Shown: positions 6,126 to 23,494 of the stretch, one piece after another
Layout: each line of letters begins with the position of its first letter
Numbering within the stretch: the stretch's first letter is position 1
The notes under the pieces: generated by a model
The model's input: only the letters and a program-made list of their open reading frames with translations
Told to the model about the DNA's origin: nothing
Database searches by the model: none
Position numbers and translations under genes: made by a program
IMG/VR virus record: IMGVR_UViG_3300025597_000613
Span: 1 to 23,494 of that record
Strand: one strand, 5' to 3'
Source of the DNA: a virus
Taxonomy: Duplodnaviria > Heunggongvirae > Uroviricota > Caudoviricetes
Length of the DNA: 23,494 nucleotides

Positions 6126-7274
6126 TTAGGCCTGCACATCTACACCGCGACGTGCAGCCTCAGCCTTCTTCTTCTCCAGCAGGCGCTTGAACTTGGCCTC
6201 CTTGGTGAGACAGGTAGCCTCGGCCATCTCGAGCCAGTGCTTGGGATCTGCCTTCACGAAGTCAGCAATCTTCTTCGCCTGACGCAGCGACAGTTCGCGC
6301 AGGTACTCCTGGTTGTCGATGATGAAGTTCTGGATCATCTTCTCCTCGCCATTCTCGAAGGCATAGTTGTTGAACATGCCATCGGAAATGACCTGCTTGA
6401 TGCGCAGGATCTTATCGCGAGTGGAAGTGATCTCCAGATCCAGGTAGTGACAGCGAGACATGATGGCTTCGAGGTGCGCACTGATACGCGAACCACGTGC
6501 AATCGTGCGTTCGAAGTCGATGTTGGACAGGAACATGATGCCACCTTCGAAGTCGAATTGGCTGTCAATGTCCATGCCTTGCAGCACCTTGGACTCCTTG
6601 TTCCAGCAGATGCGGCGCTTGTCACCGGAGTTGAGCGCACCCTTCAGCAGGGAGAGCGACTCCTCCTCGAACAGCACACCGTCACAGTCATCGAACACCA
6701 GCACCTGGCCGGGATGACGATTGTAGTACAGTTTCTGGTAGAGGCCCAGCGAAGAGACGCCGCCCGTCACGATTTCGTATTTGGGATTTTGACCCTTCAT
6801 CGTGAGGAACATATTGGCAGCCTCGAGCTGCTTTTCGACGCCGAACGACTTACCGATGCCCGGGGGACCCGACACCACCAAGCCGCGCACGACACCTCGC
6901 GCAACAGCATCAGCGATGCGGTCGAGCATCAGGAACGTCTCGCGAATGCGCTCCATTGCCTCGTCTTCGGTCTCGGTCTCCATGAAGAGACGCTCGTAGT
7001 CCGTGGAATCGGTTGCGCTGTCATCAAGCTTTTCTTGACCAGGAACCACGACGTGGGCGGGAAGATCGGCGCCGGTAGCATCCACCAGCTTGAAGTGATC
7101 TTTCTCGACCTGGATGCGCTGCACCGGCGGAGTACCAGGGTCCGGATTCGGATTGCGAATGGTAACGTAGCCACCACGCGCACCTTCGACGTAGCCCTTG
7201 ATCAGATGGAAAGTGCCACTGATCTCTTTGCCACGATAATGACCCTTGGTGATTTGAACTTGGATTGCGCTCAA
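6126..7274 (-). CDS. phage AAA+ family ATPase (TTG start at 7274)
   Basis: Walker A VSGPPGIGKS, Walker B LVFDDCD, sensor-1 FLSN, SRC Arg-finger; AAGGAG SD 7 nt before TTG; upstream ATGs fall inside the promoter. Confidence 0.9.
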   Translation of the reverse strand: MSAIQVQITKGHYRGKEISGTFHLIKGYVEGARGGYVTIRNPNPDPGTPPVQRIQVEKDHFKLVDATGADLPAHVVVPGQEKLDDSATDSTDYERLFMETETEDEAMERIRETFLMLDRIADAVARGVVRGLVVSGPPGIGKSFGVEKQLEAANMFLTMKGQNPKYEIVTGGVSSLGLYQKLYYNRHPGQVLVFDDCDGVLFEEESLSLLKGALNSGDKRRICWNKESKVLQGMDIDSQFDFEGGIMFLSNIDFERTIARGSRISAHLEAIMSRCHYLDLEITSTRDKILRIKQVISDGMFNNYAFENGEEKMIQNFIIDNQEYLRELSLRQAKKIADFVKADPKHWLEMAEATCLTKEAKFKRLLEKKKAEAARRGVDVQA

Positions 7275-7305
7275 ACGAGACTCCTTTGTTGTGTGTTGAG
7301 CCATT

Positions 7306-7334
7306 AGTATAGCGAACTTGACCAAGTTGGTCAA
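7306..7334 (-). promoter_or_regulatory. sigma70-type promoter TTGACC-17-TATACT with palindrome CTTGACCA-N3-TGGTCAAG
   Basis: Sequence. Confidence 0.85.
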
Positions 7335-8147: not shown

Positions 8148-8610
8148 CCTCTTGAGAAACAAGTTTCGCAGCCACGTAGGGTTTTTCTCGCAGTTCCTGG
8201 AACTTGAGATGCTTGGCAGGAATTTCACCTTTGTAGTCATCTGAAATTAGACTTTGAACAGCGAGTTCGTTTCCGTCTGCATCCACAAAGACGCCGAAGC
8301 CGTAGGGAAGATGAACGACACCGGTGGTGCGTGCATGGTTAGGTACCATGAATTCATAACCCTTGTAATTCAGGATATAGAAGTTATCGGCAATGAATTT
8401 CCAGATCGCCGGCAGCAGGTGCTCATCATCCGGATGAATACGGAATTCATCCCGCGTGGAACCACTATCGAGGAGATGAACACTCATCCATCCGTCATCC
8501 TTGTGGCTAACCTTACTGCCAGGAAAGACGGTGAAATACATTTCCACACGAGCACCGAGCATCAGCGCAGTCAGATGCTCGAATGAGAGGACGTGGTAGA
8601 TATTTTTCAC
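8131..8610 (-). CDS. hypothetical protein
   Basis: ORF, ATGA-type overlap. Confidence 0.8.
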   Translation of the reverse strand: MKNIYHVLSFEHLTALMLGARVEMYFTVFPGSKVSHKDDGWMSVHLLDSGSTRDEFRIHPDDEHLLPAIWKFIADNFYILNYKGYEFMVPNHARTTGVVHLPYGFGVFVDADGNELAVQSLISDDYKGEIPAKHLKFQELREKPYVAAKLVSQEVDEQE

Positions 8611-8801
8611 AGTTGCACCGAATACTTCTGCTGAAGTTCCTTCAACTTCTTCTCTTCATCAGACCAGTATTTGTTGGCCTTCTCATGGGCAGCCGGGCTG
8701 ATGGAATCACCGGCGCCATGCTGCTTTCCATCCTCGACGTGGATACTGGCACAAACCATCAGCCAGGCTAGATCTTCACGCGAAATCACCACAAAATCCA
8801 T
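8607..8801 (-). CDS. hypothetical protein
   Basis: ORF with GAAAGG SD. Confidence 0.7.
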   Translation of the reverse strand: MDFVVISREDLAWLMVCASIHVEDGKQHGAGDSISPAAHEKANKYWSDEEKKLKELQQKYSVQL

Positions 8802-8821
8802 TTTATGCCTTTCGGTAAACT

Positions 8822-9085
8822 CATTGCGCCCCGCCCCGTTAATTCGAGCTATATATCCTTAAGGGATATCCAGGCCGTGAAACCTGCAGGTTAATTCCTG
8901 TATTGTAAGCCCCCTTCACGAGAGGCTTGCGGGGTGCAATGAATTCGTTGGAGCACATAGTCCTGCATCTGCGTGGAAACAGTTCCGAAAATGGCATTGA
9001 ACCAGGTTCGTTCATTCACCAAAATCGGTTGGTCTTCTGCCCGCACCTTCCGGGCTGCACCATGCAGGACTATGTGTTCCGCTGA
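8822..9085. ncRNA. candidate two-domain structured RNA or ssDNA element; each domain is a long basal stem closing about four hairpins
   Basis: 13-bp stem 8822-8834/8929-8941 and 19-bp stem 8950-8968/9062-9080, with internal hairpins; minus-strand promoter just upstream. Confidence 0.55.
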
Positions 9086-9091
9086 GCCTCT

Positions 9092-9119
9092 ACTTTAACA
9101 CATAGTAATCCTGTGTCGA
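9092..9119 (-). promoter_or_regulatory. sigma70-type promoter TCGACA-16-TAAAGT
   Basis: Sequence; same -10 as promoters at 4855 and 14756. Confidence 0.55.
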
Positions 9120-9142
9120 CCGGTAAAAGAAAGCCTTCCTAC

Positions 9143-9214
9143 TCATAGCGTCATACTTGTAAAACAGTAGATCCTTCCGATAGTCTCTACTGTTTTACAA
9201 GTATGACGCTATGA
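9143..9214. repeat. perfect 29-bp inverted repeat with 14-nt loop
   Basis: TCATAGCGTCATACTTGTAAAACAGTAGA at 9143-9171, reverse complement at 9186-9214. Confidence 0.95.
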
Positions 9215-9238
9215 CACCGGAAACCTCTACCTCTTCAG

Positions 9239-9263
9239 TGTAACAGTTGTAACTAAATGTAAC
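9239..9263 (+). repeat. three TGTAAC direct repeats
   Basis: Starts at 9239, 9248, 9258. Confidence 0.6.
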
Positions 9264-9519
9264 AACCATCGATCAAAGTATCCCGTAGTCACTCATCCTA
9301 TGTTATAATTAGCCGACGGTTCGAACAGCGTATCTGGGGATGGTGGCCCCATGGCTGGTTCACGGTCCAATGAAGATCACATCACCCAATCTCAAGTTTG
9401 TTGGGCCCAGAGGTTGCCTCCGGTTAAATTTTCCAGCTGAGGTATTCACCTCTTTTCACCAAGGTCAAACAGGGTCTGTGCGCCTGCGTGACGGCATAGA
9501 AAATCTGTGCGTAAGAATT

Positions 9520-9590
9520 GTTACGAAATGTAAAAGATGTAACGAAATGTATCTTCGTTACGAAACTTACAACAGTAACGAAATGTAACA
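9520..9590 (+). repeat. four iteron-like direct repeats GTWACGAAAYKTA
   Basis: Starts at 9520, 9539, 9557, 9575 (period 18-19 bp). Confidence 0.85.
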
Positions 9591-9607
9591 GAAAAAGAAT
9601 AGAAGGT

Positions 9608-9853
9608 CTATTGAAATTTTTTGCTGAAGCCGCGGTTCCGCCGCGTCATTTTCACATCAATGGGAAATTTAAGTTTGAGTAATATCACTTCCTCTTCCTT
9701 AAGTTTTGCCCTGATGCGATATCCCTTACCGTCGCCTTTAATCTGACTGATAAATTCTTTTCGATTTATGGCCACCAAGGCATTCATAAACTGCAAATAA
9801 TGCTCTGCCGGAATTTGAATAATTCGTGAATAAGGTTTGTTCGATGTAGTCAT
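9608..9853 (-). CDS. small protein, paralog family A
   Basis: C-terminal YRIRAKLKEEEVILLKLKF. Confidence 0.8.
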   Translation of the reverse strand: MTTSNKPYSRIIQIPAEHYLQFMNALVAINRKEFISQIKGDGKGYRIRAKLKEEEVILLKLKFPIDVKMTRRNRGFSKKFQ

Positions 9854-16897: not shown

Positions 16898-17277
16898 TTG
16901 TTGAATCCGTAATGGTTGGGAAGTTGACCAGTGCTATCAATCTGCTTAAATTCTCGCTTACGAGGCTGCGGTTTCCTGATGAGTTTATAACCCAATTTAT
17001 CTGCCGCCAATGCCATAAGGCGAAGTTCACGCTCCGGTGACAACCGGTGATTGCTATGACTATCACTGTGTGACAGCGGGGCCATACTTAGGTAATCGAA
17101 GATGGCTAGAGTCTGGGTACTGGTATGCGTGCATTCGACGACACGACCCCCGTGAAATTGACTTCCGTCCTGCCCTGCCTTATTCATGGCCTCGGCAATC
17201 TTTTGCCCAAGGAAGGGATCGCTTTCCCATTCATGGCAGAGATCATTATTGAGGATGACTACGGTGCGGTTACCCAT
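16894..17277 (-). CDS. hypothetical protein
   Basis: AGGAG SD, downstream of promoter 17297-17324. Confidence 0.8.
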   Translation of the reverse strand: MGNRTVVILNNDLCHEWESDPFLGQKIAEAMNKAGQDGSQFHGGRVVECTHTSTQTLAIFDYLSMAPLSHSDSHSNHRLSPERELRLMALAADKLGYKLIRKPQPRKREFKQIDSTGQLPNHYGFNK

Positions 17278-17296
17278 GTGTACTCCTGATTCAATA

Positions 17297-17324
17297 ATTA
17301 TAGCACCTGCTATAAAAACGTCAA
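17297..17324 (-). promoter_or_regulatory. sigma70-type promoter TTGACG-16-TATAAT overlapped by palindrome TTATAGCA-N2-TGCTATAA
   Basis: Sequence. Confidence 0.8.
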
Positions 17325-17327
17325 GCG

Positions 17328-17375
17328 GAAAAGAGAAAGCCCTGCAACCGGGACAGTTCCGGACTCAGCAGGGCT
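17328..17375 (-). terminator. terminator-like hairpin AGCCCTGC...GCAGGGCT plus UUCUCUUUU
   Basis: 8-bp outer stem, U-rich tail. Confidence 0.65.
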
Positions 17376-17880
17376 CACCGTTATGACCGTTGTTGGCACC
17401 GGATGCAGTACCAATCTCCGACACAGTACCTTCTATGTATTCACTAGATGCTCTCACCTCAGGGATGAGTATCCAGCTTTCCTCCAGTATACTCTGCGTC
17501 TATCACCAAATTATACTCTAATCAATATATGCATTGCACCCCGCAAAATCGGGCAAGCAAGTGGCCGGGATTCTTAGGCCCCTAACAAAAAATTATGAAA
17601 GTAATGTAAGTTTCTTTGGATATATCTCCTCAAGCCGATAAATCGGGTCAAAGATCTATCATATCATTTATGTAACGTTAATTCCATCGGCACCCGCCCT
17701 GTTGGACAGAAACCAAGTGGGTTGCACCTCTCAGTACAATACGGCTCAGTGAATGGCGAGGATTAGCTCCCGAACTACAATCCTACAAGCCATTCACCGG
17801 AGATTTGAGTTTCCCTTTCGGGCACAGATTTCTCTATGTCATCAGCACTCATCTTCTCCGACCGTTTCGTCCTTCTGAAC
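17328..17880 (-). ncRNA. candidate large structured RNA region (~550 nt)
   Basis: No credible ORF; nested stems with GNRA tetraloops and G-U pairs favouring the minus strand; 3' terminator. Confidence 0.5.
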
Positions 17881-17883
17881 TCG

Positions 17884-18072
17884 TCAGTTGTACAAATTTT
17901 CAAGCAGTAGATAAAGAGCAAAAAGAGTATTTAGAACAGGGCACAGAATCAAGAACATAGCAAAAATTCTTTCCTTCATGGTGAAGGGGTAACCCATTTC
18001 CACCCCGGCTCTATACTCCTTTGCAAGGAGCAAGGCCAGAACAATAACGGAAAGGATATACGCTGCAATCAT
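17884..18072 (-). CDS. small membrane protein (start MIAAYIL)
   Basis: Two hydrophobic segments, CPVLNTLF motif. Confidence 0.7.
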   Translation of the reverse strand: MIAAYILSVIVLALLLAKEYRAGVEMGYPFTMKERIFAMFLILCPVLNTLFALYLLLENLYN

Positions 18073-18105
18073 CTCAAGCTCGCTGTGCAATGCTTAAATA
18101 CTACT

Positions 18106-18280
18106 AAAAATCTGCCTCAGTTGCAAGCATCCGAGGTCTAGTATTTTTCAACCCTTCGGTTTAGCCTGGGAATTCAACCCAGCGACAAAAGAACGATGTA
18201 AGCCTTTCACTTACCTGCCCGCAAAATTCCCTGCGTTTTTTGGGTGGGACGCAGAGATACGCTTTCGCGTAGCCTTTAGA
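18106..18280 (-). ncRNA. candidate structured RNA with GAAA tetraloops and terminator
   Basis: UACGC-GAAA-GCGUA, GUAAG-UGAAAG-GCUUAC, CUGGG-UUGAAUU-CCCAG, terminal CCUCGG/CUGAGG plus U-run. Confidence 0.45.
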
Positions 18281-18377
18281 ACTCACGCTTCGGTCTTGAA
18301 CCGAACATCAAACGGACTTCAGGCATGCTTGCAGGGCCCTACGTCAAATCTCGTCTGAAGCATCCCCATTCGTGAGC
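18281..18377 (-). other. tRNA-like element (acceptor stem and canonical T-arm, no D-stem, extended central arm)
   Basis: GCUCACG/CGUGAGU; UUCGG-UUCAAGA-CCGAA; GCUUCAG/CUGAAGU; no encoded CCA. Confidence 0.45.
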
Positions 18378-18382
18378 ATATT

Positions 18383-18455
18383 TGGCGTCTTCTTGCAGGC
18401 CTTGAACCTACCAGTGATACATCATTAACGATCAAAGTGTTCCAACCTAGAAGAC
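18383..18455 (-). pseudogene. degenerate tRNA with encoded CCA; anticodon not assignable
   Basis: GUCUUCU/AGAAGAC-G-CCA; T-arm GUAGG-UUCAAGG-CCUGC; poor D-arm and irregular anticodon arm. Confidence 0.5.
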
Positions 18456-18466
18456 AAATTTGAAAA

Positions 18467-18537
18467 GTCCCACGGGGAGTCGAAACCCCAATCGCGTTAT
18501 TTTAAGAAGCGCGACGTCAACCTTTAGATGACAGGAT
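18467..18537 (-). pseudogene. degenerate tRNA-like sequence
   Basis: D-like CAUCUAAAGGUUGAC, UCGCG/CGCGA stem with 13-nt loop, GGGG-UUUCGACU-CCCC; weak acceptor stem. Confidence 0.35.
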
Positions 18538-18563
18538 GCAGCCCGTTCATCTACGACGGAAAC

Positions 18564-18704
18564 TTACAGGGTACGACAGAAAGAAAAGTGGGGCCGACCC
18601 TACGGCGCTGGGGATAACCCATCTATTCTCTTCCGATTGCAACAGAACTTGGAGAAAGTGGCATTTGCATCTACCCGAATCCCCTTGTCTATCGCCCCCT
18701 GTAA
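18564..18704 (-). ncRNA. candidate ~140-nt RNA closed by a long basal stem
   Basis: UUACAGGG/CCCUGUAA plus GCGAUAGA/UCUGUCGU; inner GGGGAU/AUCCCC and GCCG/CGGC; weak promoter upstream. Confidence 0.5.
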
Positions 18705-18719
18705 ATTCCCAACAATCTT

Positions 18720-18748
18720 ATTTTGCTGTATTAGCAAGGATAGGTCAA
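18720..18748 (-). promoter_or_regulatory. weak-consensus sigma70 promoter TTGACC-17-CAAAAT with spacer palindrome TTGCT-N5-AGCAA
   Basis: Sequence; precedes the RNA cluster. Confidence 0.45.
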
Positions 18749-18759
18749 CTGGTGCTATA

Positions 18760-19155
18760 CTAAATGTAGAGACAGTGAATAAATTCCTTCAATGCCACAC
18801 GCTCTTCCTTTGAAAGTTTTTCAAAGGTTTCTTTAGCTAGAATATATCTTTTTGCCTTAGCATCTTGTTCGACTTGAATTTCTTTTAGTTTGCCTTCGAT
18901 GTTTTCAATTTCCCATTCATCAGATTCATAATGAATTTCGTCATCGTAGAAACCGTTTTGTTCATCGTTGAAGACAAGCTTAGGACCTATAGCGGTTAGG
19001 ACGAGATGGGAGGAAACACCGAGCTTTTCGGCCAGTACCTGTGCTTCAAGCATTCTCTTAGGAATACTTTTCCTAAATTCAGCCAATGCGAGCTCAGCCG
19101 CCGCCTGTTCAGCAGCCAACCTTTCAGCTTTTTGTTCTTTGGTCTCTTTAGCCAT
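18760..19155 (-). CDS. hypothetical protein, probably leaderless
   Basis: ORF; ATG 6 nt after the -10 box. Confidence 0.8.
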   Translation of the reverse strand: MAKETKEQKAERLAAEQAAAELALAEFRKSIPKRMLEAQVLAEKLGVSSHLVLTAIGPKLVFNDEQNGFYDDEIHYESDEWEIENIEGKLKEIQVEQDAKAKRYILAKETFEKLSKEERVALKEFIHCLYI

Positions 19156-22631: not shown

Positions 22632-22726
22632 GTTGACTTTCTGTTGATGTGGGCCTTCCACCCACTTGTGACCCTTAAAAAATTCAACATTTGTTGAATA
22701 TTGCCGTTGTCCTACCAGCAAGTTCT

Positions 22727-23019
22727 TGGTGCCCGAAGCGGGACTCGAACCCGCATGTCTTTCGACGGGGGATTTTCTTACCACTATGACTTTCATCACC
22801 ATTTCTGTTTGTGGTCTGGACTATATCTTCACCTTTGCTTGTGCTTTAGGTGTTTGGGTATCTAGTCTCTACGGCGCTCTGGAGTTAACCAGTTCCCTCG
22901 GTGTTGCCATCAGCATTATCTGTTAAGGTTTCACCGATATCCCCAAATCCACTTTATAAGTTTCCCTATAAAGGCTCAGTTTTCAAAGTCCCCTGTGTAT
23001 ACCATTTCACCATCCGGGC
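22727..23019 (-). tRNA. trnL: tRNA-Leu(UAA), intron-containing (exons 23019-22986 and 22776-22727), CCA encoded
   Basis: Spliced product: acceptor GCCCGGA/UUCGGGC, D-arm GUG/CAC, anticodon arm GGGGA-CUUAAAA-UCCCC, long variable arm, T-loop UUCGAGU; 84 nt. Confidence 0.92.
22777..22985 (-). mobile_element. group I self-splicing intron (209 nt, no ORF) inserted after U34 of tRNA-Leu(UAA)
   Basis: P1 CUU/GAG with U-G at the splice site; P2 with GAAA loop; P4 UCGGUG/CACCGA; R GUAGAGACUA; S AAGAUAUAGUCC; P9 GAAA; terminal G. Confidence 0.92.
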
Positions 23020-23494
23020 GTTAATTTTTTCTGCAATTTTACAGCTCTTTCGTAATTACCACCTTTTGCTGCTAATCCTACGCTCTGCAATGCTTGCCTT
23101 ATATTACTATGAGATTGCAGTGCAGTCAAAAGTTCCTCGTCAGACACTTTCTTTTTTCCGGGATTTTTATTTCTACCCCTGAATGTATCTGTCTGAGAGT
23201 GGCAATTAGGGCATAACCATCTTAAATTTTCTTTTCTATTATCAGTTCTTTTACCATTTATGTGATCGAGTTCGAGAACCAGGTGTTTATTTTTCCAACC
23301 AATGATTCCGCAATCTTCGTCACTACATTTATATTCTAATATATTAAAATGATGAATATATTTTCTTAGGAATTCGCTACCCCAATGGGTATTTTCTTTA
23401 AAAATTTCCTCTTCAGTGTATGTAGTTGCCCCCTTATGAGATATTCTATCTTTTATCTCATCTGGTAATGAATGGTAATCATATCCTCTATGTG
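23007..23494 (-). CDS. HNH homing endonuclease, 5'-truncated by window edge
   Basis: LELDHINGKRTDNRKENLRWLCPNCHSQTDTFRGRN followed by VSDEELLTAL...VGLAAKGGNY helical domain; stop TGA at 23009-23007 inside the tRNA gene. Confidence 0.9.
   Translation of the reverse strand, partial: HRGYDYHSLPDEIKDRISHKGATTYTEEEIFKENTHWGSEFLRKYIHHFNILEYKCSDEDCGIIGWKNKHLVLELDHINGKRTDNRKENLRWLCPNCHSQTDTFRGRNKNPGKKKVSDEELLTALQSHSNIRQALQSVGLAAKGGNYERAVKLQKKLTPGW

Follow-up and report, generated by a model that had tools for sequence, protein, structure and literature searches.

An apparently uncatalogued family of tRNA-sized structured RNAs with a covarying loop-loop contact in jumbo phages

The stable RNAs of phage tRNA clusters have been a standing question since species 1 and 2 of T4, and GOLLD is likewise located near phage tRNAs. 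Abundant intergenic RNAs have been reported from PA5oct, a jumbo phage related to the one described here (PMC7318152). Three traits define the YrlA RNAs, namely a T arm, a Ro-binding motif near the 5' end and a location next to Ro60 (PMC4201824). Here, a locus is described that a preliminary description, made from the sequence alone, had likened to the YrlA architecture.

The window, i.e. the whole stretch of 23,494 nt that was analysed, is the first 23.5 kb of a linear 211,620-nt virus record that is ~55% complete; this source record is a 212-kb jumbo phage fragment. Its AAA gene (6126-7334) shares 43% identity with the counterpart in Pseudomonas phage PA5oct and 62-70% with those of uncultured phages whose complete genomes are ~365 kb. 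The minus strand carries nearly all of the window's genes. Both domains under study (Table 1) lie inside an 800-nt non-coding block, 8801-9608, in which a 29-bp palindrome and short repeats are found as well and over which neither a tRNA (ARAGORN) nor an Rfam family was detected. Elsewhere in the window, the non-coding blocks 17277-17890 and 18090-18760 have homologs in another contig (L160; ~70-74% identity, E 6e-26 and 1e-10); they have no Rfam match and are further candidate structured RNAs. At 22795-23492 lies the core of a group I intron (46.9 bits) together with an ORF for an HNH endonuclease (23007-23492), and the intron apparently interrupts a tRNA-like gene near 22726-22795.

Table 1. 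Features of the locus, in window coordinates
Feature	Position	Strand	Description
64-aa ORF	8607-8801	-	Directly downstream of domain 2; not a constant neighbour in homologs
Domain 2	8819-8944	-	126-nt RNA module with six-way junction; closing stem 8944-8929/8834-8819 (9+6 bp, one mismatch) plus five hairpins
Hairpin H5	8835-8848	-	Most conserved sequence of the family; A-rich hexaloop; common to long and short forms
Hairpin H4	8853-8869	-	5-nt loop, N+GNRA-like in most homologs
Hairpin H3	8871-8886	-	6-nt loop 8881-8876, kissing partner of H1
Hairpin H2	8887-8900	-	A-rich hexaloop resembling that of H5
A-rich linker	8901-8906	-	6 nt; conserved, found in the short form too
Hairpin H1	8907-8928	-	6-nt loop 8920-8915, pairs with H3 loop
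Domain 1	8950-9080	-	131-nt RNA module; 19-bp basal stem, three arms; 8 compensatory pairs between two alleles
Short hairpin P4	8969-8982	-	One compensatory pair
Long arm P3	8985-9028	-	Invariant 7-nt loop 9009-9003; contains the bases earlier mistaken for a T-loop
Arm P2	9031-9061	-	Invariant 7-nt loop 9050-9044
Promoter	9092-9119	-	sigma70-type, extended -10; score 9/12, TG present; predicted start ~9085, at the 5' end of domain 1

Fold, strand and covariation of the two domains

The proposal of two closed multibranch domains holds, since on the minus strand both fold far beyond chance (z -7.5 for domain 2 and -5.4 for domain 1; 0 of 200 shuffles). The 19-bp basal stem of domain 1 was recovered (8950-8968/9062-9080), albeit closing three arms instead of four hairpins. 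For domain 2, a 13-bp stem with four hairpins gives way to five hairpins on a closing stem of 15 bp, in which a 1x1 mismatch separates 9 bp from 6 bp.

Searches of IMG/VR and JGI contigs by BLAST, with a covariance model and with two motif patterns yielded further full-length copies of domain 2, and the window copy was aligned with 11 homologs using MAFFT (58-99% identity). These 12 copies represent about seven lineages, so that all cell counts given here overstate independence: 98.8% of pair cells hold, against only 38-47% in slid controls; 31 of the 48 pairs show two-sided change (0 of 500 shuffles); and the 6-bp kiss between the H1 and H3 loops is complementary in 12 of 12 copies, with 72 of 72 cells paired, seven different loop combinations and all six pairs changed on both sides. 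Judged from these sequences, shared ancestry alone cannot account for the seven matched loop pairs. There is no conserved ORF. The covarying structure, together with the lack of an Rfam match, upholds the earlier suggestion of a candidate new ncRNA.

The strand, previously called ambiguous, is minus. Among the predicted pairs of the 12 domain-2 copies there are 66 G-U and 5 A-C on this strand, an excess that settles the orientation and speaks for RNA rather than DNA. Furthermore, in L117, one of two Logan contigs (L117 and L123) that carry the same locus, both folds are kept via compensatory changes and the element folds well solely in the window's minus sense.

In domain 1, eight covarying pairs are spread across three arms and the three terminal loops are invariant, in a comparison that comprises two alleles only. 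The P2 and P3 loops are complementary over 4 bp, which suggests a possible second kiss. Searching with a model of domain 1 yielded no additional copy in 11 related records or 16 loci, nor in five cultured jumbo phages, where the searches ran without a positive control; its stem pattern gave 116 chance matches in viral contigs, in coding DNA.

A promoter-like site is indeed present upstream of domain 1, as previously noted, but on count alone such sites are not above chance (10 found versus 10.1 expected). The site at 9119-9092 is similar to other promoters of the window and recurs at the corresponding position in L117, where the -10 box is better; transcription would start from it. The placement invites the idea of a riboswitch-like or attenuating leader for the downstream operon, with the promoter directly upstream and, as the preliminary description stated correctly, the ATG at 8801 ~20 nt past the end of domain 2. 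The idea is more plausible for domain 1, which sits at the predicted transcription start and whose invariant complementary loops resemble the loop-loop clamps of aptamers; with two alleles known, domain 1 could be a cis-acting leader. Against this, there is no terminator between domain 2 and the 64-aa ORF and no alternative fold was seen, Rfam offers no match, and in L117 and L123 the gene after domain 2 encodes 115 aa and replaces the window's 64-aa ORF. Because a different gene follows in L117, no fixed link exists between the element and the 64-aa ORF; where the 115-aa gene has relatives, they lie in gene-dense surroundings too tight for the element. Domain 2 often controls no gene by position. 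A leader is consequently an improbable reading overall, and the earlier notion of a gene-specific riboregulatory leader finds no support for domain 2, whose downstream gene varies even among the closest relatives and which elsewhere ends before the next promoter.

Distribution, mobility and the short form

The window and L117 are 90% identical over domain 2, 78% over domain 1, and 75% and 46% over the flanking ORFs; domain 2 is thus better conserved than the ORFs that adjoin it. L123 is a mosaic, window-like upstream and L117-like from within domain 1 onward. The recombination crossover falls at 9048-9110 of L123, in the 5' strand of domain 1, with L117-type domains and the 115-aa gene beyond. 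In L117 a third, possibly structured segment of ~90 nt follows domain 2 (L117:1966-2058); it is also present in L123 and is missing from the window.

Beyond these two closest relatives, domain 2 is accompanied by neither domain 1 nor origin-like repeats; it lies mostly near tRNA genes, and at five loci a tRNA gene is 230-724 nt away. Encoding in or beside tRNA arrays is true for most homologs, though not for the window copy. In contig L159 domain 2 is found downstream of a histone-like gene and upstream of a promoter, and no domain 1 exists anywhere in that complete 369-kb genome. In L243 and L238 domain 2 is preceded by different long-stem modules, the various copies stand before unrelated genes, and in other phages the element terminates just ahead of the following promoter. 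The 8819-9080 region is therefore two independent modules on the minus strand and not a single RNA, so the one combined architecture once proposed separates into its parts. Comparison of the copies establishes the folds of both domains and the strand, as well as the loop-loop pairing of domain 2 and its mobility as a module among tRNA arrays and operon ends. As a separate observation, another unannotated long-stem module with a near-identical core is present at L238:901-995 and L243:5171-5274, directly preceding domain 2 in the latter.

The same distribution bears on the suggestion of a DNA-level single-strand origin or primase signal (ssi/sso type), in which the palindrome and repeats would form a replication origin with the domains. 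The locus does adjoin the 29-bp palindrome and short direct repeats, and these are conserved in L117. Yet the palindrome/repeat block is absent from all 19 other domain-2 loci, the homologs sit among tRNA genes, and the G-U pairs on one strand only, the GNRA-like loops and the maintained loop-loop kiss are typical of RNA; this is the least probable of the alternatives. The palindrome itself (9143-9214) is a perfect 29 bp in L117 via compensatory changes, with conserved core and loop; together with the repeats (9240-9590) it may constitute an origin or genome-end element in its own right.

In four contigs (L241, L244, L245 and L251) many array modules, tRNAs included, are enclosed by 12-22-bp stems. 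By analogy, the long basal stems may be a device for processing or packaging that these arrays have in common. In L245, 15-19-bp inverted repeats flank tRNA genes at 18-127 and 2536-2638, an arrangement that suggests a stem-based processing scheme. It might be supposed that the modules are nothing but cis-acting processing or stabilising elements, i.e. nuclease-resistant spacers or signals that shape tRNA and operon transcripts. Their position at operon heads, at operon ends and between tRNAs fits, as do the long closing stems common to other array modules, but a signal of this kind needs no six-way junction, covarying tertiary contact or invariant loops, and we regard the proposal as rather unlikely.

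The family is not universal. It was not found in two complete related genomes, nor in the cultured jumbo phages PA5oct, GAP32, XacN1, RsoM2USA and Atu_ph07, and so is not essential to the group. GTDB genomes gave no match to the domain-2 pattern, two over-strict domain-2 patterns returned zero matches, and whole-region blastn against cultured phages produced chance-level matches only. Matches to a one-mismatch H5 pattern in other genomes were rejected as non-homologous.

A short form of ~75 nt was nevertheless found in 22 records, in cultured Klebsiella, E. coli and Erwinia jumbo phages. It has three hairpins and comprises the inner closing stem, H1, the A-rich linker, H4 and H5, without H2 and H3. 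In phages 121Q, RaK2 and K64-1 it lies within tRNA clusters; in 121Q it occupies the 90-nt gap from tRNA-Met to tRNA-Asn. Against the long-form model it scores weakly (16-20 bits, E 5e-4 to 5e-3), and the probable link between the two forms is supported by their shared H5, linker and stem order alongside this weak score. Two annotated ORFs overlap short-form RNAs and are probably mis-calls: RaK2 ORF220w (L261:1413-1598), on the opposite strand, and a 35-aa ORF of Erwinia phage Hallingskeid (L254:2905-3012). In Klebsiella phage KP13-7 an unannotated group I intron (104 bits; L252:2659-2907) interrupts the tRNA gene that immediately precedes the short-form RNA.

The short form has no loop complementary to H1, and this matters for the possibility of self-assembly, in which the H1 and H3 loops of domain 2 would pair between molecules to give dimers or rings, like phi29 pRNA or the GOLLD and ROOL oligomers. 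Perfect 6-nt complementarity is kept while the loop sequences vary freely; intermolecular kissing is the mechanism of pRNA (PMC4201828), and ornate phage RNAs oligomerise (PMC12286853). As the cultured-phage form dispenses with H2, H3 and the complementary loop, the kiss is not the core of the family, and a rough estimate of geometry would permit it inside a single molecule. Self-assembly is on these grounds unlikely.

Proposed processing and role

The best explanation, and in our judgement a probable one, is that the locus holds two small tandem RNA genes on the minus strand whose products are cut from a precursor as stable, trans-acting RNAs. The promoter at 9119-9092 would transcribe both modules as the head of an operon, and the modules would be excised in the manner of phage tRNAs. 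Their long outer stems may serve as processing stalks, a reading adopted because tRNAs and other array modules are enclosed by similar 12-22-bp stems; where the short form lies between tRNA genes, it could be released by ordinary tRNA processing. Transcription, release from a precursor and function are all steps that we infer. The rivals fall roughly in the order oligomer, cis processing, leader, Y RNA and DNA origin.

As to function, the most likely reading, held tentatively, is a compact tRNA-sized RNA that binds protein as a decoy or scaffold. It is favoured because the conserved core consists of the junction, the linker and the H5 loop, with the kiss dispensable. The H1-H3 kiss of the long form would act as a structural clamp that the short form manages without, and the partner would probably be a host or phage tRNA-handling protein or nuclease.

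With more reserve still, domain 2 possibly defines a new class of phage RNAs, tRNA-sized and with a biochemical task of their own, which come in a minimal version with three hairpins and a more elaborate one locked by the kiss. If so, it might for example act as a decoy for a tRNA nuclease with which the host fights phages, or as a scaffold that assembles itself, and this would be directly testable in E. coli phage 121Q. The family combines a well-supported fold, a covarying tertiary contact and small and large versions. Furthermore, unlike most metagenomic motifs, it occurs in cultured E. coli and Klebsiella phages, whose annotation omits it or wrongly lists a short ORF in its place, and tests of expression, structure and knockout are therefore straightforward.

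Comparison with known RNAs

Rfam searches of the window and six homolog loci, at gathering and E-value thresholds, gave nothing over either domain, as the preliminary description had anticipated in seeing no family match; among the riboswitches no aptamer model matched, and no expression platform was apparent. Searching the full text of papers for the conserved motif returned one unrelated match; the supplement of PMC10690425 (10,000 viral structured RNAs) lies outside this comparison, within which domain 2 is apparently an uncatalogued structured RNA family. A tRNA or tmRNA cloverleaf with D and T loops is not indicated either, ARAGORN and Rfam being negative and a terminal CCA absent.

The likeness to YrlA seen earlier is confined to a long terminal stem with a multibranch head, in a phage that encodes a Ro-like protein and RtcB. 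On this basis domain 1 or 2 might be a divergent Y RNA for the Ro-like protein (DUF2828, PHROG 850), which is annotated as an RNA-binding protein and encoded at contig positions 206803-208248. The YrlA features themselves are lacking. The supposed T-loop at 9004-8992 is no T arm: its five central bases make up the 3' side of a stem that shows three compensatory changes, and the T-loop sequence is missing from the L117 homolog. The 5' Ro-binding motif is absent from both strands of the window element, with one internal, non-conserved match in L117. YrlA has a Ro60 ortholog on its own strand no more than 4 kb away, whereas here the DUF2828 gene is at least 12 kb off even with the contig ends joined. 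The YrlA Rfam model did not match, and a PDB sequence search gave no link between the DUF2828 protein and Ro60. A Y RNA is thus very improbable. Taken on their own, the RtcB ligase gene (contig positions 57423-58616) and the DUF2828/PHROG 850 gene resemble an RNA repair set.

phi29 pRNA (PMC4201828) is similar in its ~120 nt, long closing helix and two loops of covarying complementarity. The two complementary loops are a property of the long form only, the short form lacking the second. pRNA has a three-way junction and domain 2 a six-way one, there is no Rfam match, and the phage type is unrelated. GOLLD, ROOL and OLE (PMC12286853) are likewise ornate multistem ncRNAs with loop-loop contacts, of 500-800 nt compared with 75-130 nt here; neither an Rfam match nor a length above 500 nt was found. 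The abundant orphan intergenic RNAs ncRNA001 and ncRNA002 of PA5oct (PMC7318152) match neither domain model; they show that RNAs of this kind exist, not that this family does.

Closest in kind, without a match to the domain-2 model, are T4 rnaC (species 1, 139 nt) and rnaD (species 2, 119 nt), which by annotation are multibranch RNAs of similar size from a phage tRNA cluster. Unlike domain 2, they have an arm with a tRNA-like 7-nt loop, tRNA-like ends, another helix order and no loop-loop complement. Domain 2 is accordingly a variant among the orphan RNAs of phage tRNA arrays.
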